Source of the DNA: a virus
Length of the DNA: 64,000 nucleotides
Reading direction: 5' to 3' (one strand)
IMG/VR virus record: IMGVR_UViG_3300046010_009647
Coordinates: 15,500-79,499 of that record
The first letter of the stretch is position 1, and every line of letters begins with the position of its first letter. A program made the translations under genes and the position numbers. Positions 45,635-64,000 of this stretch are shown here, one piece after another. The notes under the pieces were generated by a model, which worked only from the letters and a program-made list of their open reading frames with translations, was not told where the DNA came from and did not search any database.

Positions 45635-45822
45635 GTCTGTATTCTTGGGCAAAACCTTTGTAACACCTACAAATTTTAGGTGTTATGTACAGTGTGATAC
45701 AAAAAGACCGGCCCTATAGAGGTCAAAAAAGGGAAAAAATTTTACTGGCGCTTCTCCAACACCCCACGCGACGTGAATTGCGTATAGAAAAAAAGAAAGG
45801 GTGGGTGGGTTGAAATAGTTAT

Positions 45823-45849
45823 CGGGGGCTGCGCATCCGTAGAACGCAG
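45823..45849 (+). ncRNA. Divergent H-type pseudoknot (family B-like)
   Basis: CGGG/TCCG stem; loop CTGCG pairs with CGCAG after TAGAA. Confidence 0.4.
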
Positions 45850-45870
45850 AGTTCCATTGTATTCGGTACC

Positions 45871-46137
45871 ATGACGACAGTAATGACGACGATTAGCACA
45901 GATGAGATGACTAGCCGACTTGTCGATGCAGCGTTCGCGCTGCGAGCAGGCAAGAAGGTTGTCATGAAGCCTGGCGTGCTGCGAGCCAGTGGCTGGTCAG
46001 CTAGCCAAGTGATTAAGTTCTTGTTAGAGGAACTGTATGAGTGCGAAGTTTACATGGATAACGACGTGATGTGGAAGGTGTGGATTACACGCCGCCCCGA
46101 AGATCACGGATTAGTTATCGAAGGCAGTTGCCGTTGA
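45871..46137 (+). CDS. Early hypothetical protein
   Basis: ORF track. Confidence 0.55.
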   Translation: MTTVMTTISTDEMTSRLVDAAFALRAGKKVVMKPGVLRASGWSASQVIKFLLEELYECEVYMDNDVMWKVWITRRPEDHGLVIEGSCR

Positions 46138-46351
46138 CGATTGTAATTTACCCTGGTGAGAGCCAGGGTTTACTACAGCCCTCAATCCCTACATTCCCCA
46201 CCTAATTACCGTACAATCCTTGTCAATTCACTAGGTATTTATACCTTTTGATACGAATTCGTATCGCGCGCGACCTCATTTAGGCTACAGCTGGGGGTTG
46301 GTCTTACAGAACAGTTGCAGCATATACCCGACCTACAGACTCGGGATTAAC

Positions 46352-46376
46352 CGTCAAGCTGGACGTTAAACGTAGC
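46352..46376 (+). ncRNA. Divergent H-type pseudoknot (family B)
   Basis: CGTC-AAGCTG-GACG-TTAAAC-GTAGC. Confidence 0.5.
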
Positions 46377-46401
46377 AGACAACTCGGCGGTCGGTCACGA
46401 C

Positions 46402-46435
46402 CTTGGCATCCACACTTCAGTGGTTTAAGTCCAAG
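46402..46435 (+). ncRNA. Family A bulged-stem RNA motif
   Basis: CTTGG-CA-T-CCAC-loop-GTGG-TT-TAAGT-CCAAG. Confidence 0.65.
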
Positions 46436-46454
46436 CTCACCCTACGGAGTAACC

Positions 46455-46652
46455 GTGGACTACACCGTCAACATCATCGAGCGTAACGGTCAGTACTTCC
46501 TCCAAGAAGTCTTTGCAGTTACTGAGTTCCAGTATGTGGAACAAGTGACTGCAGGTCCGTTCCAAGCTCGATGGCAAGCAGACGTGCGACGCTCACAGGA
46601 GTATCCGGCATACCGGGGACTAACTGATGAGTACTGCCGTCTGCAACACTGA
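46455..46652 (+). CDS. Early hypothetical protein
   Basis: GGAG RBS, GTG start. Confidence 0.6.
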   Translation: MDYTVNIIERNGQYFLQEVFAVTEFQYVEQVTAGPFQARWQADVRRSQEYPAYRGLTDEYCRLQH

Positions 46653-46716
46653 TCCGTTAAAGCGGGTTGGGAGGTGCAAACCCTCCCACAGTTATTGCCC
46701 CCAGCGGAGATGGGCA
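46648..46716 (+). ncRNA. Family C T-loop three-way junction plus hairpin
   Basis: ACTG/CAGT, CCG-TTAAAG-CGG, TGGGAGG-TGCAAAC-CCTCCCA, TGCCC/GGGCA. Confidence 0.65.
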
Positions 46717-46736
46717 CCGCACACACGGAGAACACC

Positions 46737-46817
46737 GTGACCTTCACCGTTACCGAAACACTCGCACTCGCCGCCATCTTTGTGGTGGCATGTGTGATCG
46801 GTTACGTTACCGACTGA
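46737..46817 (+). CDS. 26-aa single-TM peptide
   Basis: GGAG plus GTG; MTFTVTETLALAAIFVVACVIGYVTD. Confidence 0.6.
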   Translation: MTFTVTETLALAAIFVVACVIGYVTD

Positions 46818-46878
46818 TCCGTCTAAGCGGGAGGCAGGGTGCAAACCCCTGCCCAGTCATTGCCACAATCCCGTGGCA
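46812..46878 (+). ncRNA. Family C T-loop three-way junction plus hairpin
   Basis: GACTG/CAGTC, CCG-TCTAAG-CGG, GGCAGGG-TGCAAAC-CCCTGCC, TGCCAC/GTGGCA. Confidence 0.7.
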
Positions 46879-46894
46879 TCTACACCAAACGACA

Positions 46895-47074
46895 GTGACT
46901 CAACGCATTGCAACCTACGTGATCATCGCTGCTTCCATCATGGGTATTGGTGGGCAAGCCGTTATCTACTTCACAGATAAGGCAACTGCTCACCAATGCA
47001 TTAACCATGACTGGCCTAAGGAGCATGACACACTCCACCGTAACTGGTGCATCACCAACGGTTACGACATCTGA
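46895..47074 (+). CDS. Small membrane-anchored protein
   Basis: GTG start MTQRIATYVIIAASIMGIGG...; Cys pair. Confidence 0.6.
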   Translation: MTQRIATYVIIAASIMGIGGQAVIYFTDKATAHQCINHDWPKEHDTLHRNWCITNGYDI

Positions 47075-47137
47075 GTCCGTTTAAGCGGCGTTCCAGGGTG
47101 CAATTCCCTGGTTCAGTATTGCCACAACTCAGTGGCA
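47071..47137 (+). ncRNA. Family C T-loop three-way junction plus hairpin
   Basis: CTGA/TCAG, CCG-TTTAAG-CGG, CCAGGG-TGCAATT-CCCTGG, TGCCAC/GTGGCA. Confidence 0.7.
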
Positions 47138-47153
47138 TCTCACGACACTACCT

Positions 47154-47315
47154 ATGACTTACTACGTCATCATCAAGAATCACGACGAATTCTCTCAGGC
47201 TTATCTCCAGGGCTGTGAGCAATCATTTAATACTGAGCAACAAGCTCAGGATTACATTCAAACATTTGAGGATTGGGAGCAAGATCTCCTGGAGATTGAC
47301 TTCAATCCTTTCTGA
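47154..47315 (+). CDS. Small acidic protein, 53 aa
   Basis: MTYYVIIKNHDEF...FNTEQQAQDYI...DFNPF. Confidence 0.6.
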   Translation: MTYYVIIKNHDEFSQAYLQGCEQSFNTEQQAQDYIQTFEDWEQDLLEIDFNPF

Positions 47316-47376
47316 GTAACAGGCGTGATGCCAGGGGATCAAATCCCCTACTCAGTATTGCCACAATCCCGTGGCA
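47312..47376 (+). ncRNA. Family C T-loop three-way junction plus hairpin
   Basis: CTGAGT/ACTCAG, GGCG/TGCC, AGGGG-ATCAAAT-CCCCT, TGCCAC/GTGGCA. Confidence 0.65.
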
Positions 47377-47394
47377 TTTACTCAACTCAACACT

Positions 47395-47643
47395 ATGCTG
47401 TGCTACTACCCATACGAAGGTGCAACCGAGCGCATCACCTGGCATGGAGGAGAATCAACCATGCTTCACTACCAAGTGCAGGTTGATGACTACAAGGGAG
47501 ATCCTGACTGGATCGACCGTTACTCCCAGACACTTGGCGGAGGTATCCCTTGTGGTACTAAGGAGTTATTAGCTGCTATGTCTGATTACTATCAGCACAT
47601 CAGCCAACTCCATCTCGACACAATGGCTGGAACTATCTTCTGA
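47395..47643 (+). CDS. Early hypothetical protein
   Basis: ATG after CTCAACTCAACACT linker. Confidence 0.6.
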   Translation: MLCYYPYEGATERITWHGGESTMLHYQVQVDDYKGDPDWIDRYSQTLGGGIPCGTKELLAAMSDYYQHISQLHLDTMAGTIF

Positions 47644-47644
47644 T

Positions 47645-47692
47645 TCCTGCTCTAAGGGGCTTCGGCCCTTTACTGCAGGATTCAACTCCTGC
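47645..47692 (+). ncRNA. Family D two-state hairpin
   Basis: TCCTGC...GCAGGA...TCCTGC with inner TTCG hairpin. Confidence 0.5.
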
Positions 47693-47711
47693 TCCCATAC
47701 CACACAACACC

Positions 47712-47900
47712 ATGACTAAACTCAACATCCGTAAGAACCTTGCGTCAATCCTTGCCAATACTGCAGCAGCAGTTGAGAATGCCAAGGTACCTACCAAGGC
47801 AGGCATGACAGAGAAGCTGAACGAGTATCGTACTCGGGCGGCGGCACTCATCATGCCGAACGACATGGCATTCATCATCCAACCCAAGCAAGGTAACTGA
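47712..47900 (+). CDS. Early hypothetical protein
   Basis: ORF track. Confidence 0.6.
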   Translation: MTKLNIRKNLASILANTAAAVENAKVPTKAGMTEKLNEYRTRAAALIMPNDMAFIIQPKQGN

Positions 47901-47903
47901 TTC

Positions 47904-48119
47904 ATGCGACGCAACTACCAACGTAACTACTTCTCTGACTCCTGTGTTGCTATTGTTCTCGGCACTGGTCTTGGCTTATTCCTATCTGTTGGAGCACAGA
48001 AAGTTCTCAACAGACACTACAAGGCCACGTGCCACAACCAACCAGGACATAACCTGATCTACACCAAGTCTTTCCTTGGTGACACGTACTTTTGCATCAA
48101 TGCAAAGTACATGAACTGA
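47904..48119 (+). CDS. Small membrane-anchored protein
   Basis: TM helix, Cys pair. Confidence 0.6.
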   Translation: MRRNYQRNYFSDSCVAIVLGTGLGLFLSVGAQKVLNRHYKATCHNQPGHNLIYTKSFLGDTYFCINAKYMN

Positions 48120-48120
48120 T

Positions 48121-48181
48121 CTCTGCACTTAAGCCTTCTCATCCTTGTGATGCGTGGCTTTTCTGCAGGGTTCTCCCTGCA
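48121..48181 (+). ncRNA. Family D two-state hairpin
   Basis: CTCTGCA...TGCAGGG...CCCTGCA with inner AAGCC/GGCTT. Confidence 0.5.
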
Positions 48182-48199
48182 CTACACCAAACAACACCA

Positions 48200-48481
48200 A
48201 TGACAATCACGATCAGCCCCAGAGAAATTACAGATGCTCAACAGATGTTGAACATCGAACCAAACGACTGTTACCTGGAGTTTACGCAAGGTACTGTCTA
48301 TCTTTGTTGGGTTACCGACAAGGAGACAGCTCAGATGTATATCGACAACCTCTTCGAGTGTGTCGATGTCAAGTTGTACGGCAATTGGGTAGACATCTAC
48401 GGACAACACGAACGTGAAGTCCCAGTGTCATTACCCGATGTCAAACTGTTTGACTGCCGTTACATCCTCGCTACTAACTGA
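48200..48481 (+). CDS. Early hypothetical protein
   Basis: ATG after A/C-rich linker. Confidence 0.6.
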   Translation: MTITISPREITDAQQMLNIEPNDCYLEFTQGTVYLCWVTDKETAQMYIDNLFECVDVKLYGNWVDIYGQHEREVPVSLPDVKLFDCRYILATN

Positions 48482-48482
48482 C

Positions 48483-48686
48483 ATGAAGACAATCTACTCA
48501 ATGGGCAAAGGCAAGTATGTGATCCTTGATTCTTATGAGTCTTATCCTGAGAATCGCCTTGGATCTATTGCTATTGCCCTCCTCGCACTCCTCCTTGCCA
48601 CCATCAGTGGCACAGCATTGTTGGGTGTGGATCTTACCAAGATCAATCCACAGCCCGTCAAAGCACAACCTACAATCACTCGCTGA
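48483..48686 (+). CDS. Small membrane protein
   Basis: TM helix IAIALLALLLATI. Confidence 0.55.
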   Translation: MKTIYSMGKGKYVILDSYESYPENRLGSIAIALLALLLATISGTALLGVDLTKINPQPVKAQPTITR

Positions 48687-48687
48687 C

Positions 48688-49044
48688 ATGACCACACAAC
48701 TCAAAGAACACACCGAAGTACTTGAGGCACGCATCCAATGCCTGATCGACAAGCTGCTTGCACATTACGCTAAACAGTACGGAGATGGCGGCATTGCATT
48801 TGACATGGTCAAAGGCGTCAAGTACTACAAGCTCATCCAACGTGACGTCAAACGCTCAACGTTGAATGGCAACACTGGTGCCTGCGTGCATGCATTCATT
48901 CATCGCCAGACTGGCTGTGTCTTTAAACCAGCAAGCTGGAAGGCACCAGCTAAGCACGTACGTTATAACCTCATGGACGAGGTATCGTTTGCCACCTGCA
49001 TCCAAGATGCTGATTGGGCTGGCTCATACCTCTACATGAAGTAA
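48688..49044 (+). CDS. Conserved phage hypothetical protein
   Basis: KYYKL...VHAFI...G.VFKPASWKAPAKHVRYNL. Confidence 0.75.
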   Translation: MTTQLKEHTEVLEARIQCLIDKLLAHYAKQYGDGGIAFDMVKGVKYYKLIQRDVKRSTLNGNTGACVHAFIHRQTGCVFKPASWKAPAKHVRYNLMDEVSFATCIQDADWAGSYLYMK

Positions 49045-49052
49045 CCACAAAT

Positions 49053-49105
49053 CCCTGGGCCTTCGTTGTTGAGAATCTTTCGCAACAAGGATGTAAGTCC
49101 CAGGG
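49053..49105 (+). ncRNA. Family A bulged-stem RNA motif
   Basis: CCCTGGG...long variable stem...TG-TAAGT-CCCAGGG. Confidence 0.65.
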
Positions 49106-49133
49106 CTATCCCAAACACCACAGCAACTAACCA

Positions 49134-49508
49134 ATGCGTACTCGAATTTCAATCGTCAAAGAAGATAGGATCTGGAACCTGAGGTGCCAGGGCTATCGTT
49201 ATGACTCCATTGCACAAATTGTTAATTGCAAACCGGTATCCATTACACAAGTCATTAGACGTGTACGTAACCGTCCTCCGTACGAGCAAGATCCTGTGCG
49301 TCGTGGAAGATTTAATTCTTTCTTGAGCGATGCACAGATAGAAGATATTCGTACCCGTAAAGCGCACGGAGAACACGTCTCCAAACTTGCAGAAGAATAC
49401 TACATCACTATTGCAGCTATCTATCACATCACTTCATACCGCACCTACAAGAACCCTTGTGGTGACAGTGGTTATCAATTCAATTTTAACAATCGTTTAA
49501 TGTCCTGA
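49134..49508 (+). CDS. Tandem HTH DNA-binding protein
   Basis: GYRYDSIAQIVNC and VSKLAEEYYIT..AIYHI HTH-like segments. Confidence 0.65.
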   Translation: MRTRISIVKEDRIWNLRCQGYRYDSIAQIVNCKPVSITQVIRRVRNRPPYEQDPVRRGRFNSFLSDAQIEDIRTRKAHGEHVSKLAEEYYITIAAIYHITSYRTYKNPCGDSGYQFNFNNRLMS

Positions 49509-49510
49509 TC

Positions 49511-49548
49511 ACTGGGCATCCACACGCAATGTGGTGTAAGTCCCAAGT
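49511..49548 (+). ncRNA. Family A bulged-stem RNA motif
   Basis: TGGG-CA-T-CCACA-CGCAA-TGTGG-TG-TAAGT-CCCA. Confidence 0.7.
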
Positions 49549-49572
49549 ACAAACCATTCAACTCACAACACA

Positions 49573-49779
49573 ATGACAGAAGACAACAAGCGGTATCACC
49601 TCATCATCAACGTTGATGAAAAGTATGCCATCGTCAACGCACTAGCCTTCTATCATGCACACCACACCCTGGGTGCATTGATGGATGAAGATGAGTGTGA
49701 ACAATACATGCTCGCATTCCAAGAAGATGGTCCTGCCTTTGTTGATTCCCTAGCAACAAAGGTGGCCAATACCTTCTGA
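49573..49779 (+). CDS. Early hypothetical protein
   Basis: ORF track. Confidence 0.6.
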   Translation: MTEDNKRYHLIINVDEKYAIVNALAFYHAHHTLGALMDEDECEQYMLAFQEDGPAFVDSLATKVANTF

Positions 49780-49780
49780 T

Positions 49781-49823
49781 CCCTGGGCAGCACCGACGTA
49801 AATACGGTGTGTAAGTCCCAGGG
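49781..49823 (+). ncRNA. Family A bulged-stem RNA motif
   Basis: CCCTGGG-CA-G-CACCG-loop-CGGTG-TG-TAAGT-CCCAGGG. Confidence 0.75.
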
Positions 49824-49852
49824 TTTTACTGTCTACCTACTCAATTCAAGCA

Positions 49853-49990
49853 ATGACTGAACTCGATCCCAACTACAACGCTGACTTGCTTGATGCCATG
49901 GCTGACATGGCATATGAACAAGAGCAAGCCATGCGTGAAGAATACGAACTCAACCCACCTGAACTGGAGACTTACGATGACCAAGCCTAA
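49853..49990 (+). CDS. Very acidic 45-aa peptide
   Basis: MTELDPNYNADLLDAMADMAYEQEQAMREEYELNPPELETYDDQA. Confidence 0.55.
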   Translation: MTELDPNYNADLLDAMADMAYEQEQAMREEYELNPPELETYDDQA

Positions 49991-50077
49991 GTACACACTG
50001 CGTCAAGCATGGGATGACGGTGACATCATCATCATCCTGATCGCAATCATTTCAATCATCATCACAGAGTTTGCATC

Positions 50078-50446
50078 ATGTCTTACATCTCAGAACTCAA
50101 GAAGTTCTACCCCAAGTCCTACAAAGCACGCTTCGCAATCAATGCCTACAACGTGCACAAGTACTTCGAGCACAAAGACCCAACGGTCGTCACGGTCCAC
50201 GAAACCTATCTCAGGTACGGCGGAACCGAAGAAGGAGGTTGGTACTACACCCAAGGAGACCCTCTCGTCAGCCACTGCATCTTCTCCAAGAGGCAAGCGG
50301 TCCAGGTCTACGTCAAGTACTTCGAAGAGTACGAGATCGAAGGCCAACCTTCTCTTGGAGATACGACAACTCGATCCAACATCGACATCAGTTTCTCCAA
50401 TGAACTAGCTAAGGCTTACCCTGAATCCCGTCCGTACTACTGCTGA
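50078..50446 (+). CDS. Conserved phage hypothetical protein
   Basis: YGGTEEGGWYY...YPESRPYYC. Confidence 0.7.
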   Translation: MSYISELKKFYPKSYKARFAINAYNVHKYFEHKDPTVVTVHETYLRYGGTEEGGWYYTQGDPLVSHCIFSKRQAVQVYVKYFEEYEIEGQPSLGDTTTRSNIDISFSNELAKAYPESRPYYC

Positions 50447-50449
50447 TCA

Positions 50450-50692
50450 ATGCAAGCAACTGCAACACCTGCACTCAGTATCAACCAACGCAATCTCTAT
50501 GCGTACTACCTTAATCACAAGAAGAAGTATGGGAACACACCCTGCTTCGTACCTAAGCTTCCATCGCAAAACTCAAGGCTTGAGCAATATCTCCAGGCCT
50601 TGGTGAGACTGGAAGAATACGGATTGATACGTGTAGACAGAAGCAGTGCTAACTACACAGCATGGATCATGCTTGCACCTAAGAGCGCATAA
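50450..50692 (+). CDS. Winged-helix-like protein
   Basis: LSINQRNLY...ALVRLEEYGLIRV. Confidence 0.6.
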   Translation: MQATATPALSINQRNLYAYYLNHKKKYGNTPCFVPKLPSQNSRLEQYLQALVRLEEYGLIRVDRSSANYTAWIMLAPKSA

Positions 50693-50769
50693 CGTAGGTA
50701 TTTATACTTAATATTGTTCGCTATTCGCAAATAGCGAATACATGCCAATACTTCAGTCATAGCCTCAAT

Positions 50770-50810
50770 CCTGGGCGTCACCTACGTAAGTATGGTGTGT
50801 AAGTCCCAGG
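50770..50810 (+). ncRNA. Family A bulged-stem RNA motif
   Basis: CCTGGG-CG-T-CACC-loop-GGTG-TG-TAAGT-CCCAGG. Confidence 0.75.
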
Positions 50811-50813
50811 GGT

Positions 50814-51041
50814 TTATCCGACTACATTACGTACATCAGGTGTAAACCGTTGCATCTGATCTAACAACCTAAGCTCTGCTTGTTTGTTCTGCATCGGAAT
50901 GCTTTCATTCCGTACAACAGATGTTAAGAAGTCCATTACTTTATCTTGTGGTGGCATAGAACCATGAGCCTTCATGTATTCTTGTTGCCATCCTTGAAGG
51001 AAAGGACTGTTATTCATTGCATATCTACCAGCTAATAACAT
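50814..51041 (-). CDS. Late-type small protein in opposite orientation
   Basis: MLLAGRYAMNN...; TAGGAT -10 box upstream on the minus strand. Confidence 0.55.
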   Translation of the reverse strand: MLLAGRYAMNNSPFLQGWQQEYMKAHGSMPPQDKVMDFLTSVVRNESIPMQNKQAELRLLDQMQRFTPDVRNVVG

Positions 51042-51070
51042 GGACCTAAGTATGTCCTTAAACTGCTCAG
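51042..51070 (+). ncRNA. Family B H-type pseudoknot
   Basis: GGAC-CTAAGTAT-GTCC-TTAAAC-TGCTCAG. Confidence 0.65.
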
Positions 51071-51097
51071 TCCATCCTACTCACCATCAACTCAACC

Positions 51098-51385
51098 ATG
51101 GAACAAGCTAAGAAGTATCCAGCAATTGACTGGACCAAGAATGAGTATCATCAATTGCAGCTAGTAGTTGATGCACTCAAAGCCATTTGTGCTCGCGAAG
51201 ATAAGCGTCATCAAATGGACGAGCATCTCGATCCACACATGCGTAACGTTGTCGATGAGGTAATCGGCATGTTAGAAGATGAGATCGACTACGATCCAAC
51301 ACCTCACGAACCTGGTGAACCACCCATCACTGCAGCAGAAATGCATGCAGCTGCATGGAAAGAACACCAGGAAATGCATCGATAA
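51098..51385 (+). CDS. Early hypothetical protein
   Basis: DYDPT..GEPPIT..EMH..AW motif. Confidence 0.65.
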   Translation: MEQAKKYPAIDWTKNEYHQLQLVVDALKAICAREDKRHQMDEHLDPHMRNVVDEVIGMLEDEIDYDPTPHEPGEPPITAAEMHAAAWKEHQEMHR

Positions 51386-51558
51386 CATCAGGTAGTACAC
51401 ATGTATTTCCCCCTCACACTCCCCCAAGGAGAACCAGGGGGGAACCTTCTATATACATAAGTACTTCCTATGCATTACATCTTTTAATACACCAATTAAT
51501 CCTTGACAACCCTGGTAGACTAACCAAGTCTTCTAGACCACACATCAATTCAACTCAC

Positions 51559-51768
51559 ATGACAAACTCAAACACTCCTCGCATTCCTGATTCAATTGAC
51601 ATCCAACGTCTTCAAGCTATGCAGCTTGTAGCCAAGATGAAAGAATCAGCTGAGAAACATGGCATTGGTTTTATCGGGGGCTTTATATCCCCCAATGGAG
51701 AGAAATTTGTAATGACAAACATGGATGATGATGATGCCATAGCACTCATGCCGGAGGATCTCAAGTGA
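51559..51768 (+). CDS. Early hypothetical protein
   Basis: ATG after TCAACTCAC. Confidence 0.6.
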   Translation: MTNSNTPRIPDSIDIQRLQAMQLVAKMKESAEKHGIGFIGGFISPNGEKFVMTNMDDDDAIALMPEDLK

Positions 51769-51962
51769 CCAAGAAATCTCCCATTAGTTTTGATCGCACC
51801 ATTCATGGTGTGAACATCACTGAACATGGTATCAAGTCAGTAAGTAAACAGATCAAACTTGGACCATTCCAACTGACTGTCAACGCCAGTCCCAATGGCG
51901 TCAAAGGATCAGTCAGTATTCCTGGCACAGGCTTGAGCATTCCAAACATTAAGTTAATCTAA
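51765..51962 (+). CDS. DUF4236-like protein
   Basis: KQIKLGPFQLTVN.S..G...SVSIPGTGLS. Confidence 0.6.
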   Translation: MTKKSPISFDRTIHGVNITEHGIKSVSKQIKLGPFQLTVNASPNGVKGSVSIPGTGLSIPNIKLI

Positions 51963-51999
51963 AGATCTGGGCATCCTTACGGTGTAAGTCCCAGGTCTT
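51962..51999 (+). ncRNA. Family A bulged-stem RNA motif (minimal)
   Basis: AAGATCTGGG-CA-T-CC-TTAC-GG-TG-TAAGT-CCCAGGTCTT. Confidence 0.75.
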
Positions 52000-52021
52000 G
52001 TCCACCAACTCAACTCAATTC

Positions 52022-52207
52022 ATGTCTGTTTACGTTGACTATCTCAACATGTTTGATCGCATCAATCTTGCTGACTGCGCAAAGCGCAGAGCAAGTGCAA
52101 ATGTTTTAGATGAAACACGATTCAATGGCGAGTACGACACAGCACGTCTGTGGATGAAGTACCGCCTCATCAAGACCACCCACCATTCCTACGTGGAGGA
52201 CAACTGA
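52022..52207 (+). CDS. Early hypothetical protein
   Basis: ATG after CAACTCAACTCAATT. Confidence 0.55.
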   Translation: MSVYVDYLNMFDRINLADCAKRRASANVLDETRFNGEYDTARLWMKYRLIKTTHHSYVEDN

Positions 52208-52458
52208 TGACAGTCCTTGCAATCGAACATACTTCATTCACTGACACTCATGTCACAGTTACAGCAGTTGTTGACGACATGCGCCTGCTCTATCGGGCGA
52301 CTCGCTTTGACCCTGAAGAGTGGGCTCCTGCATTGTGCACAACAACTATTGAGTTGGATCCAGAGGAACCGATTCCTCTTGACGAAGATGGCTTCTGCAG
52401 CTATCTTGATCAACTCGATCCTCTGTGGCAACTACTCGATCTGAGTGACGACGAATGA
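52207..52458 (+). CDS. Acidic hypothetical protein
   Basis: GGAGG RBS; V.AVVDD...AT.FDPEEW.PALC. Confidence 0.65.
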   Translation: MTVLAIEHTSFTDTHVTVTAVVDDMRLLYRATRFDPEEWAPALCTTTIELDPEEPIPLDEDGFCSYLDQLDPLWQLLDLSDDE

Positions 52459-52552
52459 TTGGTTTCTCACTTGAATTCAAACGCTGGTACTTTGTACTGC
52501 GTGGTCCCAAGGGTCGAGTGTACTTGGCAACTGGCTTTATGAAATGATCAAC

Positions 52553-52580
52553 CGTCCTGGGCATGACGTTAAACTGCCTA
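52553..52580 (+). ncRNA. Family B H-type pseudoknot
   Basis: CGTC-CTGGGCAT-GACG-TTAAAC-TGCCTA. Confidence 0.7.
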
Positions 52581-52605
52581 CACTCAACTCAACTCCAACC
52601 TCATC

Positions 52606-56340: not shown

Positions 56341-56348
56341 TTACTACA

Positions 56349-56648: not shown

Positions 56649-56649
56649 C

Positions 56650-57509: not shown

Positions 57510-57621
57510 TCTGATTGAGAGGTATAAAAAACCAGAGCAAGCACGCCAGTTTCTTATGGAAGCTGGCATCATTGATGAGAATGGAGACCTCATGCCTCCA
57601 TATCAAAACACCTCAACCTAA

Positions 57622-57738
57622 TTAAAAGGTTGCAGCACTTTGCTTCTTCAGTTCCGTGACGGCATGCTTGGACTCTATATCTTTGCGTGCCAGTTTTTTC
57701 CGTTTGTCCACCAAGTAAACGATCAGTGCTTTGTTCAT
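57622..57738 (-). CDS. Small basic peptide, 38 aa
   Basis: MNKALIVYLVDKRKKLARKDIESKHAVTELKKQSAATF, ATGA-coupled to the DUF4278 gene. Confidence 0.5.
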   Translation of the reverse strand: MNKALIVYLVDKRKKLARKDIESKHAVTELKKQSAATF

Positions 57739-57887
57739 TTGACTTGTCCTCCAGTGACGTAAGGAAAGTAGCAGATGCTACGGTAGGTCAGGCAAAGCCA
57801 TGGACGGTGTGCTAAGTTCCACCATGCCTTGTCTGCCTTAGCCTGATCCTCTTGGTTGTATTTGCAACCACGATACGTTAACGTCAT
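57735..57887 (-). CDS. DUF4278-like protein, 50 aa
   Basis: MTLTYRGCKY...LTYRSICY (two LTYR units). Confidence 0.75.
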   Translation of the reverse strand: MTLTYRGCKYNQEDQAKADKAWWNLAHRPWLCLTYRSICYFPYVTGGQVK

Positions 57888-57894
57888 GGCTTTG

Positions 57895-57908
57895 GTATCT
57901 ATTGATAC
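57895..57908. promoter_or_regulatory. NtcA-like box between the -10 and the DUF4278 start
   Basis: GTA-TCTATTGA-TAC; TATAGT -10 on the minus strand at 57914-57919. Confidence 0.55.
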
Positions 57909-57961
57909 GGAAACTATATGACGATTGATGTATATGATGTAGTTCACCATGTAACATAACT

Positions 57962-58153
57962 ATGATTTCTATTTCAGAAACCTGCAAAGAGTTCAACAAA
58001 GCAATGGGTATCAAAGGAAGGTTTTTCCTTTTTGTCCTTGGTTTTGTTGGGCTATTGTTTCCTGGTTGGGTAGCCTACGTTGTTCTTTCTGGGCTTGCTA
58101 AATGTACAGAAGATAAAAATATGTATGCACTTTTAAAACAACTTACAGACTAA
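57962..58153 (+). CDS. Small membrane protein
   Basis: Hydrophobic segment. Confidence 0.5.
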   Translation: MISISETCKEFNKAMGIKGRFFLFVLGFVGLLFPGWVAYVVLSGLAKCTEDKNMYALLKQLTD

Positions 58154-58155
58154 CA

Positions 58156-58344
58156 ATGTCTTTTCTTTTGGCTCGTGTCACAGATGAATCTGATCTTCCA
58201 GATGATTACTATTCATTTGTCCAACAGTTTACATACTGGCAAGGAAGCTACGCTTCTCAACTTGATACGGAATCATTGATGATCTTGCTATGGCAAATGG
58301 ACAAACGTATTAAAGAGCTTGAGGCAAATCAAAGTAATCTGTAA
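58156..58344 (+). CDS. Hypothetical protein
   Basis: ORF track. Confidence 0.5.
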   Translation: MSFLLARVTDESDLPDDYYSFVQQFTYWQGSYASQLDTESLMILLWQMDKRIKELEANQSNL

Positions 58345-58640
58345 TGAAAGGATTTAGTTCCACCAAGCAACACACACGTTCATCTAGTTATTGGGTTGCT
58401 TCCTACACCAAAGACAATCAGGATGAGCCGCTTGGCATACACAAGAAAGTCTTGTCCTATAAACCAGGGCAAGATAAAGAAGTCTTGATGACAAACTATT
58501 GCAACTCCATCATGAAGATCAACAGAAACATATGGGAGATCTTGGTGCACCAAGGTCCATCTGAGGTCCCAGACTCAGGTGATCAAATCGTGATTCGTTT
58601 ATCACGCGAACCTTTCAAAGGCTGTAGTCAACTGCAATAA
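58344..58640 (+). CDS. Hypothetical protein
   Basis: ORF track. Confidence 0.55.
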   Translation: MKGFSSTKQHTRSSSYWVASYTKDNQDEPLGIHKKVLSYKPGQDKEVLMTNYCNSIMKINRNIWEILVHQGPSEVPDSGDQIVIRLSREPFKGCSQLQ

Positions 58641-58656
58641 TTCTGAACGGGAAGAT

Positions 58657-58684
58657 GGACCTGAGCATGTCCTAAAACTACTCA
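58657..58684 (+). ncRNA. Family B H-type pseudoknot
   Basis: GGAC-CTGAGCAT-GTCC-TAAAAC-TACTCA. Confidence 0.65.
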
Positions 58685-58719
58685 TCAGTTTTTCTTATCA
58701 TTCAACTCAACTCAACACC

Positions 58720-59496
58720 ATGAAACTCCTCAAATTCTCCACAGGTAACGGCAAGCTCAAGAACCGTCTGATCTTTAACATCCCAGCGGGCTATGCATGT
58801 CCACACGCTGGTGTCTGTAAGACCATGGCTGATCGTGTCACTGGCAAGATCATGGACTTACCTCAGTTCACTGGCACAGAAGCAGATGAGTATCGTTGCT
58901 TTGCTGCCATGGCAGAGACCAGGCCGACCGTACGTGAAGCTCGTTGGCACAACTGGGATCTGTTGCGTGAGACCATGCATATGAATGGGAATCAAGCCAT
59001 GCTTTTGCGTGATCTGATCGACCTATCACTCTCGATGCAGCCATCAAAGAAGCTGCTTCGGATCCATGAGTCAGGCGATTTCTGGACTGAAAACTACATG
59101 CGTGCTTGGATCATGGTCGCACAAGAGCGTCCTAAGCAAACGTTCTACGCGTACACCAAGTCGCTTGGTATGTGGCTGAACCTCAAGGACATCATCCCAT
59201 CTAACTTCTATCTCACTGCATCGCAAGGTGGGACACTCGATTACCTGATCCCCAAGTATCCTGAGGTGTTTCAGCGCATTGCTTATGTGGTCTACACAGA
59301 AGAGGAAGCGCAAGAGCGTGGGCTAGAGATTGATCACTCAGATGAGCTATGCTTAGGCACCAAGCCTTTTGCTCTTTTAGTTCATGGCTCACAGCGAGCA
59401 GGATCAGAAGCAAGTAAAGCACTCAGCAAACGAAAGAAAGAAGGAGGCTTTATCGGATACGGAAAGTCAAATAAAACCTTGCATCAAATGCGGTAG
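58720..59496 (+). CDS. GP88-family protein (radical-SAM-like Cys cluster)
   Basis: GNGKL..FNIPAG.ACP.AG.C...CFA, RIHESGDF, FYAYTKS. Confidence 0.75.
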   Translation: MKLLKFSTGNGKLKNRLIFNIPAGYACPHAGVCKTMADRVTGKIMDLPQFTGTEADEYRCFAAMAETRPTVREARWHNWDLLRETMHMNGNQAMLLRDLIDLSLSMQPSKKLLRIHESGDFWTENYMRAWIMVAQERPKQTFYAYTKSLGMWLNLKDIIPSNFYLTASQGGTLDYLIPKYPEVFQRIAYVVYTEEEAQERGLEIDHSDELCLGTKPFALLVHGSQRAGSEASKALSKRKKEGGFIGYGKSNKTLHQMR

Positions 59497-59899
59497 TATC
59501 CGACGTTATCCGCCACGCCCTGGTACAAAAACTGGGGCGTGTATTGATTGCGCCAATGCAAGGAATAAAAGATGGGAAGACAAAAATAAAGAACGTGTTA
59601 AAGAAGTGCAACTTTCATATAAGATGCGCAATCTTGAAACATGGAAAGAATCTAAACGTAAGTCAGTTGCAAAAGAAAGAAAAAATAATCCAGAAAAAAC
59701 AAACGCACGCAAACAAGTGAGGGACGCCATAAAAAAAGGGATTCTTTTACCTGTATCACAATGTGCTTGTAAAGACTGCGGTACAACAGCCTGTGACTAC
59801 CATCATGAAAATTACCTATTACCTTTAGAAGTTGTTCCTTTGTGTCGTTATTGTCACATTAAAAGACACAAGACTTGCGGATCAAGTGAAATCGGATAG
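59384..59899 (+). CDS. HNH-like endonuclease with Zn fingers; start uncertain
   Basis: CIKC, CIDC, CKDCG...HHENY..PLEV..LCRYCHIKRH; AT-rich. Confidence 0.7.
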   Translation: MAHSEQDQKQVKHSANERKKEALSDTESQIKPCIKCGSIRRYPPRPGTKTGACIDCANARNKRWEDKNKERVKEVQLSYKMRNLETWKESKRKSVAKERKNNPEKTNARKQVRDAIKKGILLPVSQCACKDCGTTACDYHHENYLLPLEVVPLCRYCHIKRHKTCGSSEIG

Positions 59900-59925
59900 T
59901 ATGCATCCGTCTTTCATTTGATCCC

Positions 59926-60159
59926 ATGAGTTACGTCATTGCTTGCTGGCGGTGGGGCACACCACATGCCATCACCGCTAACGGTGAAGCCAATCAATTT
60001 GAACTCATTCCACTAGACTCTGATGTAGCTTTGAACAAGATCTTTTCCCATCCTTATCGGGCAGGGGCACAACAGATCTTGACTTGGATTAACGACAACG
60101 ATGAAGACCTTGCCTGTAAAGAACTCTCAATTCAAGATGAATCCAGGTTCCGTAAATGA
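59926..60159 (+). CDS. Hypothetical protein
   Basis: ORF track. Confidence 0.55.
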   Translation: MSYVIACWRWGTPHAITANGEANQFELIPLDSDVALNKIFSHPYRAGAQQILTWINDNDEDLACKELSIQDESRFRK

Positions 60160-61960
60160 TCGGTACCTTGTCTTTGACCTCGAGAGTGATGGTCTTTATG
60201 ACAAGGTTACCAAGATCCATTGCATTGTGATCTATGACATCACAGCCAACCAAACTTTTAGTTATGGGCCTGATCGCATTACTGATGCTATTGCTCATCT
60301 GGCAACCGCTGATGTTTTGATAGGCCATAACATTTGTTTTTATGACGTACCAGTTCTGCAAAAGCTGCATTCATTTGACTGCAAATCACGCATCATTGAC
60401 ACACTCATTTGCACACGATTGATCTGGCCCAAGGAGAAACTCTATGACCTTGACATCGAACAATATCCGCAGGTTCCACCGAACCAGCGAGGTGCTGCAT
60501 CCCTTAAGGCATGGGGATGGAGACTGGCCGATCACAAGATCAGCTTCAAAGACTTCTCGGAATATTCTGAGGAGATGTTGGAATACTGCAAACAAGACGT
60601 TGCAGTTACAACAAAACTCTGGGCGCACATCGTTAAAGAGAACTATCCAGAACCAGCTCTTAAGCTTGAGCACGACTTTGCTCTCGCCATTAACAAACAA
60701 ATTAGAGCAGGTGTTCCTTTTGATGTGGATGCATGTCTTGATCTTGTGGATGATCTCCGAGCAAAACAAACAGAACTTGAAACACATTTGAAAGAAATCT
60801 TTCCACCACTTGCGCATCGCACTTGGTTTACTCCCAAGGTCAACAATCAGAAACGTGGCTATGTCAAAGGAGTGCCCTTTGAAAAAGTGCGGCATGAAGA
60901 ATTCAATCCTGGATCTCGTGACCAGATTGTTAATCGACTTAAGGCTAAGTACGGATGGGAACCAGAAAAGACAACTGAAAAAGGAAATCCAATCCTTAAT
61001 GATGAAGTGTTAGAGGCGTTGCCTTATCCAGAAGCCAAGCCTCTGGCAGAATACATGCTCATCCAGAAACGTCTTGGTCAAATTGCAGATGGCAACAACG
61101 CTTGGCTCAAGCTGGTTAATAATGACAGCGGTTGTATGCACGGTGACGTTATTACTAACGGCTGCGTCACTGGTCGTTGTGCTCACCGATACCCAAATAT
61201 GGGTCAGGTGCCAGCGGGTTATTCGCCATACGGCAAAGAATGTCGGTCATTATTTCATGCGCCACAAGGATGGGACATGATCGGTATTGATGCCAAAGCA
61301 TTGGAGCTGCGTTGTCTTGCTGGCTATCTTGCCTTGTGGGATGGCGGTGAGTACGCACGTGTTGTAACAGATCCAGAGATTGATATCCACGTTTACAACC
61401 AAGAGCGTTTTGGTGTGGCTACCAGGGACATCAGCAAGCGTTTGCTGTATGCCGTGTTGTATGGCGCTGGTCACCTCAAGGCTGGCAGCATTGTGGATCC
61501 GAATGAAAAAGATGAAGAAGTTCTGCGTGAACTAGGAAGAACTGCAATTAATTCATTCATGACTGGTGTGCCAGCATTGAAGAAACTAAAGCAACAGATC
61601 GACAGTTACATTGCACATCGTGGCTATCTCATTGGATTAGATAAGCGCATCTTGTATTGTCGTTCTGCATTCAAGGGATTGAATGTGTTGTTGCAATCAG
61701 CAGGTGCAATTCTTATGAAGCAAGTTGTTATTAACATTCATAACAACATTGAACAGAACCTTGGCTTGATTCACGGCAAAGACTGGGAGCAAGTCCTGAT
61801 GGTGCACGACGAATGCCAGTTGGTTTGTAAGCCGCAATACACAGGGCGTATCCGTGACCAAGCCATGGCAGCTTTTCCACAGGCACAGAAATTCTTTGGC
61901 TTCTTGTGTCCGCTTGAGGGGGATGCTAGAGTTGGGTCGAATTGGAACGAAACCCATTAA
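60137..61960 (+). CDS. polA: T7-like family A DNA polymerase with 3'-5' exonuclease
   Basis: Exo FDLESD, GHNI..YD, YCKQD; motif A DAKALELR, motif B KRLLYAVLYG (Tyr at the 762-equivalent), motif C VHDE. Confidence 0.97.
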   Translation: MNPGSVNDRYLVFDLESDGLYDKVTKIHCIVIYDITANQTFSYGPDRITDAIAHLATADVLIGHNICFYDVPVLQKLHSFDCKSRIIDTLICTRLIWPKEKLYDLDIEQYPQVPPNQRGAASLKAWGWRLADHKISFKDFSEYSEEMLEYCKQDVAVTTKLWAHIVKENYPEPALKLEHDFALAINKQIRAGVPFDVDACLDLVDDLRAKQTELETHLKEIFPPLAHRTWFTPKVNNQKRGYVKGVPFEKVRHEEFNPGSRDQIVNRLKAKYGWEPEKTTEKGNPILNDEVLEALPYPEAKPLAEYMLIQKRLGQIADGNNAWLKLVNNDSGCMHGDVITNGCVTGRCAHRYPNMGQVPAGYSPYGKECRSLFHAPQGWDMIGIDAKALELRCLAGYLALWDGGEYARVVTDPEIDIHVYNQERFGVATRDISKRLLYAVLYGAGHLKAGSIVDPNEKDEEVLRELGRTAINSFMTGVPALKKLKQQIDSYIAHRGYLIGLDKRILYCRSAFKGLNVLLQSAGAILMKQVVINIHNNIEQNLGLIHGKDWEQVLMVHDECQLVCKPQYTGRIRDQAMAAFPQAQKFFGFLCPLEGDARVGSNWNETH

Positions 61961-62439
61961 TGACAACGGAAGAAGCTCAAGAATTATTTGAGTACAAAAA
62001 CGGATTTTTGTATTGGAAAAAATCTGGCAGTGGAAGAAAATTAAATAAACCAGTTGGCTGTATAGATACTAAAGGTTATGCTGTTTGCAGGGTAAAAAAT
62101 AAACAATGGAAATTGCACCGTCTTATTTGGGTTTGGCATGGAAACGAATTAGATTCTAATAAACAAATTGATCACATTGATCGTAATCCATTAAATAATA
62201 AAATAGAAAATTTGCGTTTAGTAACTCCTTTAGAGAATCGCCAAAACAATGGTGGAAAATTTGTTAAATTAAAAAAGAAAGACAGATGGCAATGGTGGGA
62301 AGCGTATACTCCAAGAACTGGAAACAAGCCTGCAAAAACTATCGGTTGTTATAAAACCAAAAAAGAAGCTGAAGAAGCTGTGAGGCTTTACTTTGAAGGC
62401 GACTCTCGTGTAGGATCCTCATGGGCTGAAACCCACTAA
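61960..62439 (+). mobile_element. HNH(-AP2-like) homing endonuclease fused to a duplicated polA C-terminus
   Basis: LHRLIW..IDHIDRNPLNNKIENLR; ends EGDSRVGSSWAETH, like polA EGDARVGSNWNETH; AT-rich. Confidence 0.9.
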
Positions 62440-62445
62440 GTAAAA

Positions 62446-62473
62446 CGTCCTAAGCATGACGTTAAACTGCTTT
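62446..62473 (+). ncRNA. Family B H-type pseudoknot
   Basis: CGTC-CTAAGCAT-GACG-TTAAAC-TGCTTT. Confidence 0.7.
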
Positions 62474-62493
62474 AACACTTCACATCTGATCTC

Positions 62494-63312
62494 ATGAATT
62501 ACGTTGACGTTTGCGCCATCCTTAACGAGAATCCTCGTGAGGTATACACCAGTGCAACTTCATCTAATCTCTGTGCGGAAGTAATGCTTCCGCCTGTTGG
62601 CAACAAAGCTCCCACACTTCTAACCTTCCATGTTTACGGGAAAGCCTGCGACCGATTTAAAGACTTTTCCAAAGGAAGCCGTATCTACATTCACGGCGCC
62701 AAGTTACGGTTTGATCTGGAATCAAAGGCGTACTCGCTCCATGGAGGAGTTATTGCTCAAGTTACTGAAGCATTCCCTGTCCTCAACGACGTCATCTTGA
62801 CGGGACGTTGCATCAAAGACATTGATCAAACTGATGCACGTGCCTTCAAGACAACAGCAGATGGCTTGATGATTGCCAATCAAACAATCTCTGTTAACAC
62901 TGGTCGTAACCAAGCTGATCTGTTTAACTTCTATGCAATTAACACGGCACAAGATAAGTTAAACCAAGCTGAACTTCTGGTTAATTTCACGCGTAAAGGA
63001 ACAGGCATCACCATCCGTGGTCGTCTGGTTACCGACGCATGGACGGACAAGGACTCCCAGCAGCGTCGTAGCATCACCAAGATTCAGTTGGTGCAGATGA
63101 CACTGGCTCCTAAGAGCGGTGAGTCTCAACCAAAATCTGTGGCATCCCAGACAACCGTGGCATCCACCGATAACGTTGCTAGCCTATGGGGAGGCAAGAC
63201 CGCTGAAGAACCAGTCGATCCTTGGACCCAAGCCTCAGGTGGTGGCCTGCCTGATCTCCCTGGTCAGTATGGCAGCGCACCTAACTTTGACGACAACGAA
63301 CCTCCATTCTGA
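62494..63312 (+). CDS. ssb: Single-stranded DNA-binding protein with two OB folds
   Basis: NDVILTGR..KG..ITIRGRL..WTDKD.Q.RS; N-terminal second OB-like unit; acidic tail DDNEPPF. Confidence 0.85.
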   Translation: MNYVDVCAILNENPREVYTSATSSNLCAEVMLPPVGNKAPTLLTFHVYGKACDRFKDFSKGSRIYIHGAKLRFDLESKAYSLHGGVIAQVTEAFPVLNDVILTGRCIKDIDQTDARAFKTTADGLMIANQTISVNTGRNQADLFNFYAINTAQDKLNQAELLVNFTRKGTGITIRGRLVTDAWTDKDSQQRRSITKIQLVQMTLAPKSGESQPKSVASQTTVASTDNVASLWGGKTAEEPVDPWTQASGGGLPDLPGQYGSAPNFDDNEPPF

Positions 63313-63315
63313 TTC

Positions 63316-63546
63316 ATGCCTCTTCAACTTGATCTTAAAGAACAAGATCTTCTTTCTTTAGAAGACGCTATTGCGTACGAGTTTTTCATGGACAGTGCAT
63401 ACAAAATTATGCACAGTGCCAATGAAAAAGATTTTGACATTGTTGAGCAAGTTGCAAAACTTGCTACAGCCTCCTATCTAATTGCGCACATTTTTTGCGA
63501 AGCACGTTTAGCTAACTCACAACAAACCAATGACACCGACGCATGA
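63316..63546 (+). CDS. Hypothetical protein
   Basis: ORF track. Confidence 0.55.
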   Translation: MPLQLDLKEQDLLSLEDAIAYEFFMDSAYKIMHSANEKDFDIVEQVAKLATASYLIAHIFCEARLANSQQTNDTDA

Positions 63547-63769
63547 TCAGTTTACTCTCCTTTATGAGGATGAGAATACTAAGCTTTTGTATGAATTCAA
63601 AGCTGTTGTTGCTGACGATGTAATCAATCGCCTTGTGGATTTCCTCAAGGGTTGTGGCTACATGGAAAGCAGCATCTTTGAATGCATGAAGGAATCTTCT
63701 GAGATGTACTTCGATTCATTAAGTACTAAGCAATCCTTAATGAATTGGGGCAAGCCTGATCCAGAATAA
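63530..63769 (+). CDS. Hypothetical protein
   Basis: EF....DDVI...DFLKGCGY. Confidence 0.6.
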   Translation: MTPTHDQFTLLYEDENTKLLYEFKAVVADDVINRLVDFLKGCGYMESSIFECMKESSEMYFDSLSTKQSLMNWGKPDPE

Positions 63770-63774
63770 AGATC

Positions 63775-63802
63775 CGTCCTGAGCATGACGTTAAACTGCT
63801 CA
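63775..63802 (+). ncRNA. Family B H-type pseudoknot
   Basis: CGTC-CTGAGCAT-GACG-TTAAAC-TGCTCA. Confidence 0.75.
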
Positions 63803-63822
63803 CTTCTGACTACGAAACAACC

Positions 63823-64000
63823 ATGACTTCTTCCATGACCACCAAGAAAACTTCTGCGCTTGCATCCAGGGGACTTGATTCCTTCAAGCTTTTTCAATCC
63901 AAAGAGTTTGTCTCTGGCTACCAGAATCTTGTAACAATTCAACCACTCAACAAATCAAAGGTACGTGGTTGGTTTGTCCGTAAGTCTGATCTTGATACCT
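63823..64000 (+). CDS. Partial ORF running off the window
   Basis: ATG ACT TCT TCC ATG..., open to the end. Confidence 0.55.
   Translation, partial: MTSSMTTKKTSALASRGLDSFKLFQSKEFVSGYQNLVTIQPLNKSKVRGWFVRKSDLDT

Follow-up and report, generated by a model that had tools for sequence, protein, structure and literature searches.

Intercistronic structures that stabilise or process a transcript are an already known kind of RNA element, and include the RNase III sites of the phage T7 early region, bacterial repetitive extragenic palindromic (REP) elements and tRNA punctuation. Cutting at the T7 sites leaves the upstream message with a 3′-terminal hairpin that stabilises it. In gut phages, theta ribozymes, which are hepatitis delta virus (HDV)-like, are found directly after phage tRNAs, and the cases without a tRNA are left unexplained (PMC10879173). 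Here we describe four RNA fold families, A to D, that stand between the early genes of a cyanophage related to Synechococcus phage S-EIV1. They lie in a 64,000-nucleotide stretch of DNA (the window), bases 15500-79499 of the 79,499-bp IMG/VR record IMGVR_UViG_3300046010_009647. The folds, their strand, their positions and their neighbours are matters of observation; we read the elements, with some reserve, as caps that would punctuate the 3′ end of each cistron and insulate the leader of the next.

The window comes from an S-EIV1-like phage: its family-A DNA polymerase (60101-61960) is 71% identical to the counterpart in S-EIV1, a high-Arctic lake phage with a genome of 79,178 bp, and the two share their gene order. 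A plus-strand block from ~45700 to the window end carries ~45 small genes, thyX, GP88, the DNA polymerase, SSB and one tRNA-Leu(UAA). For comparison, 24 IMG/VR loci were collected around the gene for a 571-aa PcfJ-like protein (46-92% protein identity); these and the other loci cited are labelled L with a number. Copies from the window, S-EIV1 and the IMG/VR relatives were aligned and used to build covariance models for B (R1), C (R2) and A (R3), which were searched against both strands of the whole genome (window plus L026) with filters off.

A sequence-only reading of the window had placed four different folds at about 20 intergenic positions on the plus strand, and the covariance models together with inspection recover ~19-21. 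The searches count eight copies of B, five of C and three strong copies plus one weak copy of A, and two copies of D were added by inspection. All copies of the four families lie on the plus strand within 46400-63803, and outside the listed A, B and C copies nothing in the genome scores better than E 0.4 on either strand. Conserved additional hairpins at 45823 and 54328 complete the total. The remaining intergenic gaps of more than 45 nt are mostly filled by these two hairpins, a terminator-like hairpin at 55322 and the tRNA, and an element is absent where genes join stop-to-start. The late genes on the opposite strand have neither elements nor such leaders, and their upstream regions are ordinary and A/T-rich. 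Along the operon the families follow the order A, D, B, C, both in the window phage and in S-EIV1. In the relatives, all 84 of 84 B matches are on the plus strand, and D has 17 further copies. The positions are as follows, with covariance-model scores in bits, folding energies in kcal/mol and folding z-scores.

45823-45851, plus strand: hairpin before the first early gene, its 5′ half weakly B-like; conserved in S-EIV1 (-8.7 kcal/mol, z -1.2)
46400-46437, plus strand: B copy 1, CUUGG/CCAAG subtype, in a 5′ untranslated region far from any stop codon (R1 36.3 bits, E 3e-6)
46646-46717, plus strand: A copy 1, a three-way junction with UGA in P1, then hairpin P4 holding the next ATG (R3 77.3 bits)
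46811-46879, plus strand: A copy 2 with hairpin P4 (R3 76.6 bits; z -3.1)
47069-47138, plus strand: A copy 3 with hairpin P4 (R3 65.2 bits; z -3.2)
47310-47378, plus strand: degenerate A copy that retains the T-arm-like hairpin and P4 (R3 13.2 bits, E 0.41; repeat family D1)
47641-47693, plus strand: D copy 1, stop UGA paired in the basal stem, middle strand pairable with either flanking copy (-27.1 kcal/mol, z -5.8)
48117-48186, plus strand: D copy 2 (z -3.6)
49053-49107, plus strand: B copy 2 (R1 32 bits)
49510-49548, plus strand: B copy 3 (R1 36.8 bits)
49781-49823, plus strand: B copy 4 (R1 39.9 bits)
50769-50811, plus strand: B copy 5, separated from its own gene by the window-specific insert 50817-51079 (R1 39.1 bits; synteny)
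51038-51070, plus strand: C copy 1, GGAC stem subtype (R2 42.5 bits)
51965-51996, plus strand: B copy 6, short form (R1 36.2 bits)
52550-52581, plus strand: C copy 2, before the 571-aa PcfJ-like gene (R2 46.5 bits); L004 has B at the orthologous site
52582-52605, plus strand: example of a G-free leader with ACUCAAC repeats
54328-54362, plus strand: hairpin with a conserved loop after the 571-aa gene; its stem covaries with S-EIV1 (z -3.2)
54532-54569, plus strand: B copy 7, within the last codons of open reading frame (ORF) 54371-54580 and 1 nt 5′ of the tRNA (R1 35.1 bits); same layout in 12 relatives
54571-54646, plus strand: tRNA-Leu(UAA) in an element slot, then a 27-nt G-free leader and ATG
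54883-54914, plus strand: B copy 8, short and thermodynamically weak (R1 26.9 bits; -5.4 kcal/mol)
58653-58685, plus strand: C copy 3, before the GP88-family gene, assigned by Pfam (R2 39.5 bits)
62443-62474, plus strand: C copy 4, before the SSB gene (R2 46.5 bits)
63772-63803, plus strand: C copy 5 (R2 49.5 bits)

Family C is an H-type pseudoknot, in which a 4-5-bp hairpin presents an 8-nt loop and five of the loop bases pair with a tail that follows a UAAAC linker. The first loop has 2 nt and the second stem 5 bp, and the UAAAC of the third loop includes three invariant A. Pairing holds in 91% of the alignment cells (87% in stem 1, 95% in the loop-tail stem 2), a level reached by 0/500 shuffles. 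One pair of the loop-tail helix is A-U in 29 sequences, G-C in 17 and unpaired in none, and one more compensated pair is found in L003 and L013, so that the loop pairs with the 3′ tail and both helices show compensatory change. Family B has an outer stem of 6-7 bp that is 94.8% paired, with one pair G-C in 39 copies and U-A in 15; it encloses a 2-3-nt gap on the 5′ side, an inner hairpin of 2 to 16 bp and a 3′ bulge, GUAAGU, that is unchanged in 54/54 aligned copies.

Family A is a three-way junction formed by P1 (CUGA/UCAG), a small invariant hairpin (P2) and a 7-bp hairpin (P3) with the loop UGCAAAC, and it is followed by UUAUUGCC and then by a fourth hairpin (P4) downstream of the junction. 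Its cells are 98.6% paired, both sides have changed in 10/14 pairs, and the loops UGCAAAC and UYWAAG are invariant. The acceptor-like 4-bp P1 adjoins the T-arm-like 7-bp P3 with its 7-nt loop, giving the fold a tRNA-like half. In family D the stop codon is part of a long basal stem, which encloses a variable hairpin, and a third strand repeats the first. The middle strand can pair with either the first or the third, and changes in it are compensated better by the downstream than by the upstream partner.

The sequence-only reading had held that the fold, rather than the sequence, is conserved. This is accurate for the helices, which covary in all families, while the loops and bulges are also invariant in sequence. 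The folding z-score is about -3 for most copies, and three short B copies are weak; the short copies reach -5 to -10 kcal/mol and retain the conserved loop nonetheless. G-U and A-C pairs stand at 33:16 across the family alignments, modest support for folding of the sense strand.

None of the four folds corresponds to an Rfam family, and their novelty is not removed on that count. With Rfam 15, the tRNA alone passes, and no family matches the elements at E up to 10; nor was there an Rfam hit on the C copies in 12 other loci. A 101-nt search of C against the preQ1-I riboswitch and the pistol ribozyme gave no hit at E up to 10, and literature searches returned no description of the A-D motifs. 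Several identities were tried and set aside. Known ribozymes and riboswitches were discarded on the Rfam result, and a tRNA identity for A because ARAGORN and RF00005 find the true tRNA alone and the loop UGCAAAC departs from the T-loop consensus UUCRANY. A T7-type RNase III site needs about two helix turns, compared with 6-7 bp plus 2-5 bp in short B and 5+5 bp in C. An N4-type hairpin promoter was rejected on the G-U pairs of the sense strand and on the largest ORF, of 1033 aa, having no polymerase domain. A promoter role was likewise dropped, with no sigma-70-like site at the elements and covariation that is incompatible with duplex DNA.

The elements have fixed relations to the codons on either side. 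From the upstream stop codon to the element, the modal distance is 3-4 nt for B, 6 nt for C, 2 nt for D and -4 nt for A, in which the stop lies inside P1; each distribution has a long tail. Among the IMG/VR matches listed for A, 110/131 copies have a UGA in P1 that terminates, in frame, an open frame of 45 codons or more. On the downstream side, 16-42 nt separate the element from the ATG in the window; across the lineage the spacing is 25-32 nt for most B copies, 20-37 for C, 18-25 for D and 18 or 36-48 for A, where P4 is included. The reported arrangement of stop codon, fold, linker and start codon is borne out, with G-poor leaders of 16-42 nt in the window that are without a Shine-Dalgarno sequence. 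The window leaders contain 0-7% G compared with 21.6% in the region, with the exception of three family-A leaders that include P4 (12-28% G). Pooled over the window and relatives, leaders have 4-9% G after B, C and D and 17.6% after A (P4 included).

At the place where a Shine-Dalgarno sequence would be, the leader often carries AACUCAAC. The genome has nine plus-strand copies of AACTCAAC, all within this region, and in seven cases a start codon follows 8-24 nt downstream. G-free, CA-rich leaders enhance initiation without a Shine-Dalgarno sequence, and cyanobacterial S1 supports such initiation. The G-poor leader is probably a separate part of the system, a landing pad for Shine-Dalgarno-less initiation. 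Two further ideas were dropped: that the bulge of B forms a pseudoknot with a leader ACUUA, since just 14% of B leaders have this motif, and that neighbouring ORFs are fused by frameshifting or readthrough, since a manual count from coordinates gave no consistent frame.

One slot of the series is occupied by a real tRNA. A tRNA-Leu(UAA) with encoded CCA sits in an element slot in the window and in 12/12 relatives examined, with 1-2 nt between the end of B and the tRNA start in all of them. After the tRNA comes an 18-27-nt G-free leader with ACUCAAC and then the start of a conserved gene, which is preceded by a leader alone. B would be the final fold of the upstream RNA after RNase P cleaves at the tRNA 5′ end. 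This B copy is preserved despite lying within the final codons of ORF 54371-54580, a 69-aa frame that runs through the copy and ends on tRNA positions 8-10. S-EIV1 has no tRNA here, yet it keeps a degenerate B in the same codons and the same ORF C-terminus. At another site the families themselves are exchanged: the gene for the 571-aa PcfJ-like protein is preceded by C in most genomes and by B plus its leader in L004, so that families are interchangeable at one orthologous gene. This swap argues against class-specific regulators.

Family C extends well beyond the lineage. A degenerate 24-nt pattern for C matched at least 118 IMG/VR stretches. Among the matches listed, to which the counts for C in this and the next paragraph refer, about half have the G-poor leader of the S-EIV1-like lineage, and the others come from diverse contigs between 1 and 208 kb long, in many of which the leader has a strong Shine-Dalgarno sequence. 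In 131 unique copies, two tail positions that the pattern does not fix still pair with the loop: pair 6-24 is A-U in 78, G-C in 43, G-U in 8 and something else in 2, and pair 5-25 is formed in 118/131. At positions the pattern leaves free, G-U exceeds A-C by 83:5 across the 131 independent copies, which together with the 33:16 of the family alignments indicates that it is the sense-strand RNA that folds. Because tail positions outside the search pattern still covary in unrelated phages, C is an autonomous RNA motif of wide distribution. Copies occur after each of the three stop codons. The spacing between stop and element is sharply bounded below and peaks at 6 nt (14/37 in S-EIV1-like contexts, 22/84 in others), which would place the first C stem just outside a ribosome with the stop codon in its A site. 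Where the next start has a Shine-Dalgarno-like motif, it follows at 11-171 nt.

Several copies of C stand directly before predicted sites of RNA cleavage. A tRNA begins 4-5 nt after C in 4/135 copies, two of them inside a tRNA array, and at L059 8954-9754 a C copy has a tRNA array on one side and a 600-nt ROOL RNA (347 bits) on the other. A predicted HDV-like ribozyme layout (7-bp P1, 3-bp P3, 7-nt L3 and P2) begins 0-1 nt after C in 12/133 copies from three sequence groups, compared with a background of 0.75 cases per 125 in shuffled sequence under a first, slightly different detector. The candidate at L085 4745-4814 scores 37.8 bits against the full model of RF02682 (Faecalibacterium HDV; gathering score 44), with a local E of 6e-6, and has the core strings GGGCAAC and GGCUAA. 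HDV-like ribozymes cut at their own 5′ edge, so that the upstream product would end one base after the C pseudoknot. In several of the loci with C and an HDV-like layout, the same strand has a pistol or RAGATH-5 ribozyme 550-1000 nt further upstream, so that a single small ORF is bracketed (L037 369-1110, L085 4704-4850, also L035, L062, L043, L076, L088 and L106); these are unrelated large phage contigs. From their layout, the bracketed ORFs look like ribozyme-cut gene cassettes. The true pistol in L037 is elsewhere than the C copy. The family-B signature GGUGUAAGUCC occurs a few bases after C in L075 and L130, and both contigs have a twister-P5 ribozyme.

The other families are narrower in range. 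A strict B pattern found 73 IMG/VR stretches; none of their contigs exceeds 88 kb, and the leaders are G-poor in nearly every case. For A the count is at least 119 stretches, with contigs of up to 82 kb. By these matches, A and B look confined to the S-EIV1-like lineage. The corresponding scan for D gave 99 matches, of which ~30 are by estimate probably chance.

We read the elements as 3′-end punctuation caps that insulate the next leader, and give this reading a little under an even chance. It follows from the elements belonging to the upstream cistron end and standing where RNA is cut. In the proposed sequence of events, an A, B, C or D fold would belong to the end of the upstream cistron, at or just after its stop codon, in long early and middle transcripts. 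A cut just downstream, or decay proceeding from downstream, would leave the fold as the 3′-terminal structure, and the terminal fold may then shield the upstream message from 3′-to-5′ exonucleases. The fold would also keep the upstream sequence and terminating ribosomes from disturbing the next item. In this lineage that item would be an unstructured, G-poor leader of ~20-30 nt that serves as the landing pad for the next gene and may recruit ribosomes through protein S1; in other phages it would be a tRNA or a self-cleaving ribozyme.

By position, the elements are tied more closely to the upstream stop than to the downstream gene. The original suggestion that they act as 5′ roadblocks against RNase J is disfavoured by the same observations: the in-frame stop that A provides, the sharp 6-nt minimum in the distance of C from the stop codon, which is seen in unrelated phages too, and the placement of C and B directly 5′ of predicted cleavage sites (HDV-like ribozymes and tRNA 5′ ends), where they would form 3′ ends. 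The wider suggestion of a gene-by-gene system at the RNA level fits elements that are strand-specific, covary, have sense-strand G-U pairs and hold fixed positions to stop and start codons, and is to that extent supported.

Several points count against punctuation caps. The tight spacing of 20-30 nt to the start codon in this lineage would also fit a translational role. The basal stem of A and D must be unfolded by the terminating ribosome, which is odd for a pure cap, and ORF 54371-54580 would lose its stop codon if RNase P cut at the tRNA. The short B copies lack the stability for a passive barrier, and the unchanging sequence of their bulge suggests that a factor binds. Ribozyme or tRNA neighbours are found at ~12% of the C copies among the matches listed, in other phages, and for one B site here; cutting next to the elements in this phage is predicted from sequence, and carrying the argument from cleavage neighbours over to A and D would be by analogy.

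A broader proposal is more doubtful and is offered tentatively. It holds that family C is an undescribed, widespread and autonomous class of phage RNA, a 29-nt triple-helical pseudoknot that would act as a 3′-terminal cap together with HDV-like ribozymes, RNase P or host endonucleases to make stable single-gene messages, and that S-EIV1-like phages would run their whole early operon on four cap classes and a G-free, Shine-Dalgarno-less leader.

It is unlikely, on balance, that the elements are operator sites at which phage or host RNA-binding proteins set translation or decay, with the four families marking gene classes. Such a system could be likened to the RegA or gp32 operators of T4 or to chloroplast pentatricopeptide repeat (PPR) caps. 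It would explain why unpaired nucleotides are invariant (GUAAGU in 54/54 B copies, UGCAAAC and UYWAAG in A), why the conserved loop is kept in the weak short B copies and why the families are ordered A, D, B, C along the operon here and in S-EIV1. It sits poorly with the B/C swap at an orthologous gene and with a tRNA that can occupy the slot, and family C is near-identical across phages with very different leaders, making a lineage-specific protein improbable for C. Pfam found no RNA-binding domain among ~40 early proteins, where its hits are limited to HTH, PcfJ-like, GP88, SSB and DUF.

Less probable again is that the elements are themselves processing signals, whether as targets of host endonucleases (RNase P or RNase Z for A, another RNase for B-D) or as self-cleaving RNAs. 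The acceptor-like stem of A beside a T-arm-like hairpin with a 7-nt loop, and the real tRNA in the same slot, could be read in this way, as could the occurrence of C in tRNA arrays, within ~1 kb of pistol and RAGATH-5 ribozymes and a few kb from twister ribozymes. The elements, however, draw no tRNA or ribozyme hit from Rfam at E up to 10 and no ARAGORN call, A does not match the T-loop consensus, and C has just ~29 nt. If A or D were cut at its 5′ edge, the upstream frame would lose its stop codon, and the ribozyme that adjoins C is a separate HDV-like unit.

Improbable too is the idea that the elements are ribosome-recruiting leaders, with a fold that would bind the 30S subunit or S1 and a G-poor track that would lead it on to the start codon in place of a Shine-Dalgarno sequence. 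Pseudoknots are reported to have emerged from selections for S1 ligands, and the distances to ATG are tight (25-32 nt for B, 20-37 for C, 18-25 for D), with AACUCAAC in place of the absent Shine-Dalgarno sequence. Against this, B and C also precede tRNAs, which are untranslated, C stands 11-171 nt from Shine-Dalgarno-like starts among the matches listed, and the gene after the tRNA has the leader alone; recruitment also leaves the tie to the upstream stop unexplained.

Exchange between genomes has taken place at the elements. Two inserts set the window apart from close relatives. One, of 263 nt (50817-51079), directly follows a B copy and comprises a 75-aa ORF on the minus strand and a C copy; the other, of 308 nt (54652-54959), follows the tRNA and comprises an ORF, a B copy and a leader. 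The 75-aa ORF lies elsewhere in L006 and L008, beside a B copy. Across 14 relatives, 91/272 ends of homology blocks (33%) fall in the modules, which cover 9.6% of the region; this is a 3.5-fold enrichment in counts that are non-independent, and gene borders are natural breakpoints. The claim that the elements are recombination anchors thus finds some support, in that exchange at the repeats happens, but this need not be their purpose and may be a by-product. In L017 (~9400-10000), an extra ORF lies between a C copy and the PcfJ-like gene and uses the original start site; by eye its sequence appears HNH-like.

A primary role in DNA, whether as recombination anchors for small cassettes, as in the PeSL elements of T4, or as promoters or hairpin promoters, is highly improbable: block ends are enriched in the modules, both cassette inserts end at element edges and by our own reading C and B hold -10-like hexamers at a plausible distance from tRNA 5′ ends, yet pseudoknot covariation with many sense-strand G-U pairs is not selectable in duplex DNA, sigma-70-like matches in window 45200-64000 are depleted (14 compared with 29.9 expected from shuffled sequence), Pfam found no RNA polymerase domain in the large ORFs, and the loops are under purifying selection where the orthologue of the 571-aa protein is just 46% identical, which points to a function beyond crossover homology. 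A small remainder of the probability goes to readings other than these five.

Two further sequence features were noted. TTGACA and TAGACT, separated by 7 nt, are found at window 51503-51521 and at ~12545 in L001; they are conserved in both phages and have the wrong spacing for sigma-70. The repeat TAGGTATTTATAC occurs at 46231-46243 and 50697-50709, in long non-coding stretches that are followed by a small inverted repeat and then by a B copy. These TAGGTATTTATAC stretches may be early promoter or operator regions.

Four families in one operon offer a natural system for studying how phages split a long transcript into separately stable and translated units. Cyanobacteria are not known to have Rho and largely do without Shine-Dalgarno sequences, and the question of partitioning weighs more in these hosts for that reason. 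The position of C next to HDV-like ribozymes and tRNAs suggests a testable function for the many HDV-like ribozymes that are not beside a tRNA, and small, portable insulator or stabiliser parts would be useful for operon engineering.

Compared with known systems, the elements resemble the RNase III sites of the T7 early region in being structured, in standing between phage early genes and in having an asymmetric internal loop. They differ in that the helices of B (6-7 plus 2-16 bp) and C (5+5 bp) are not continuous enough for RNase III and in that four unrelated folds are used. As in mitochondrial tRNA punctuation and plant mitochondrial t-elements, which define message ends, folded units lie between coding regions, and here one slot contains a real tRNA and A has a tRNA-like half. 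The differences are that ARAGORN and Rfam do not recognise A as a tRNA, that the other three families have no tRNA-like form, and that A, D and the tRNA each contain the stop codon of the upstream frame. The PeSL elements of T4 also are repeated intergenic elements that flank small early ORFs, with cassette boundaries at the repeats; a PeSL combines a promoter and a stem-loop, whereas here there is no evident promoter and selection acts on the RNA fold.

Bacterial REP elements, intercistronic stabiliser hairpins and chloroplast PPR termini are likewise barriers that set the stability of cistrons within one transcript, but those are simple palindromes or protein footprints, and the present elements are specific tertiary folds with invariant loops. 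Family C shares a compact H-type form and an A-rich third loop with luteovirus frameshift signals, preQ1-I aptamers and the P1-pseudoknot part of the pistol ribozyme. Like a frameshift pseudoknot, it stands 4-5 nt after the A-site codon; unlike one, it is without a slippery site, and the frame downstream is inconsistent with respect to the upstream ORF. With the pairs of tRNA and theta ribozyme, the likeness is that C takes the place of the tRNA in other phages, directly 5′ of a predicted HDV-like ribozyme, and the difference is that the partner is a 29-nt pseudoknot after a stop codon, a structure that a text search of that report did not find (PMC10879173). The present cyanophage also differs from such pairs in that Rfam models matched no ribozyme in it. 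What is new relative to all of these is a set of four covarying folds that are absent from Rfam and interchangeable with a tRNA, with stop codons built into two of them and a dedicated G-free leader, and a single fold, C, that is linked to predicted HDV-like ribozymes and to tRNAs across unrelated phages.

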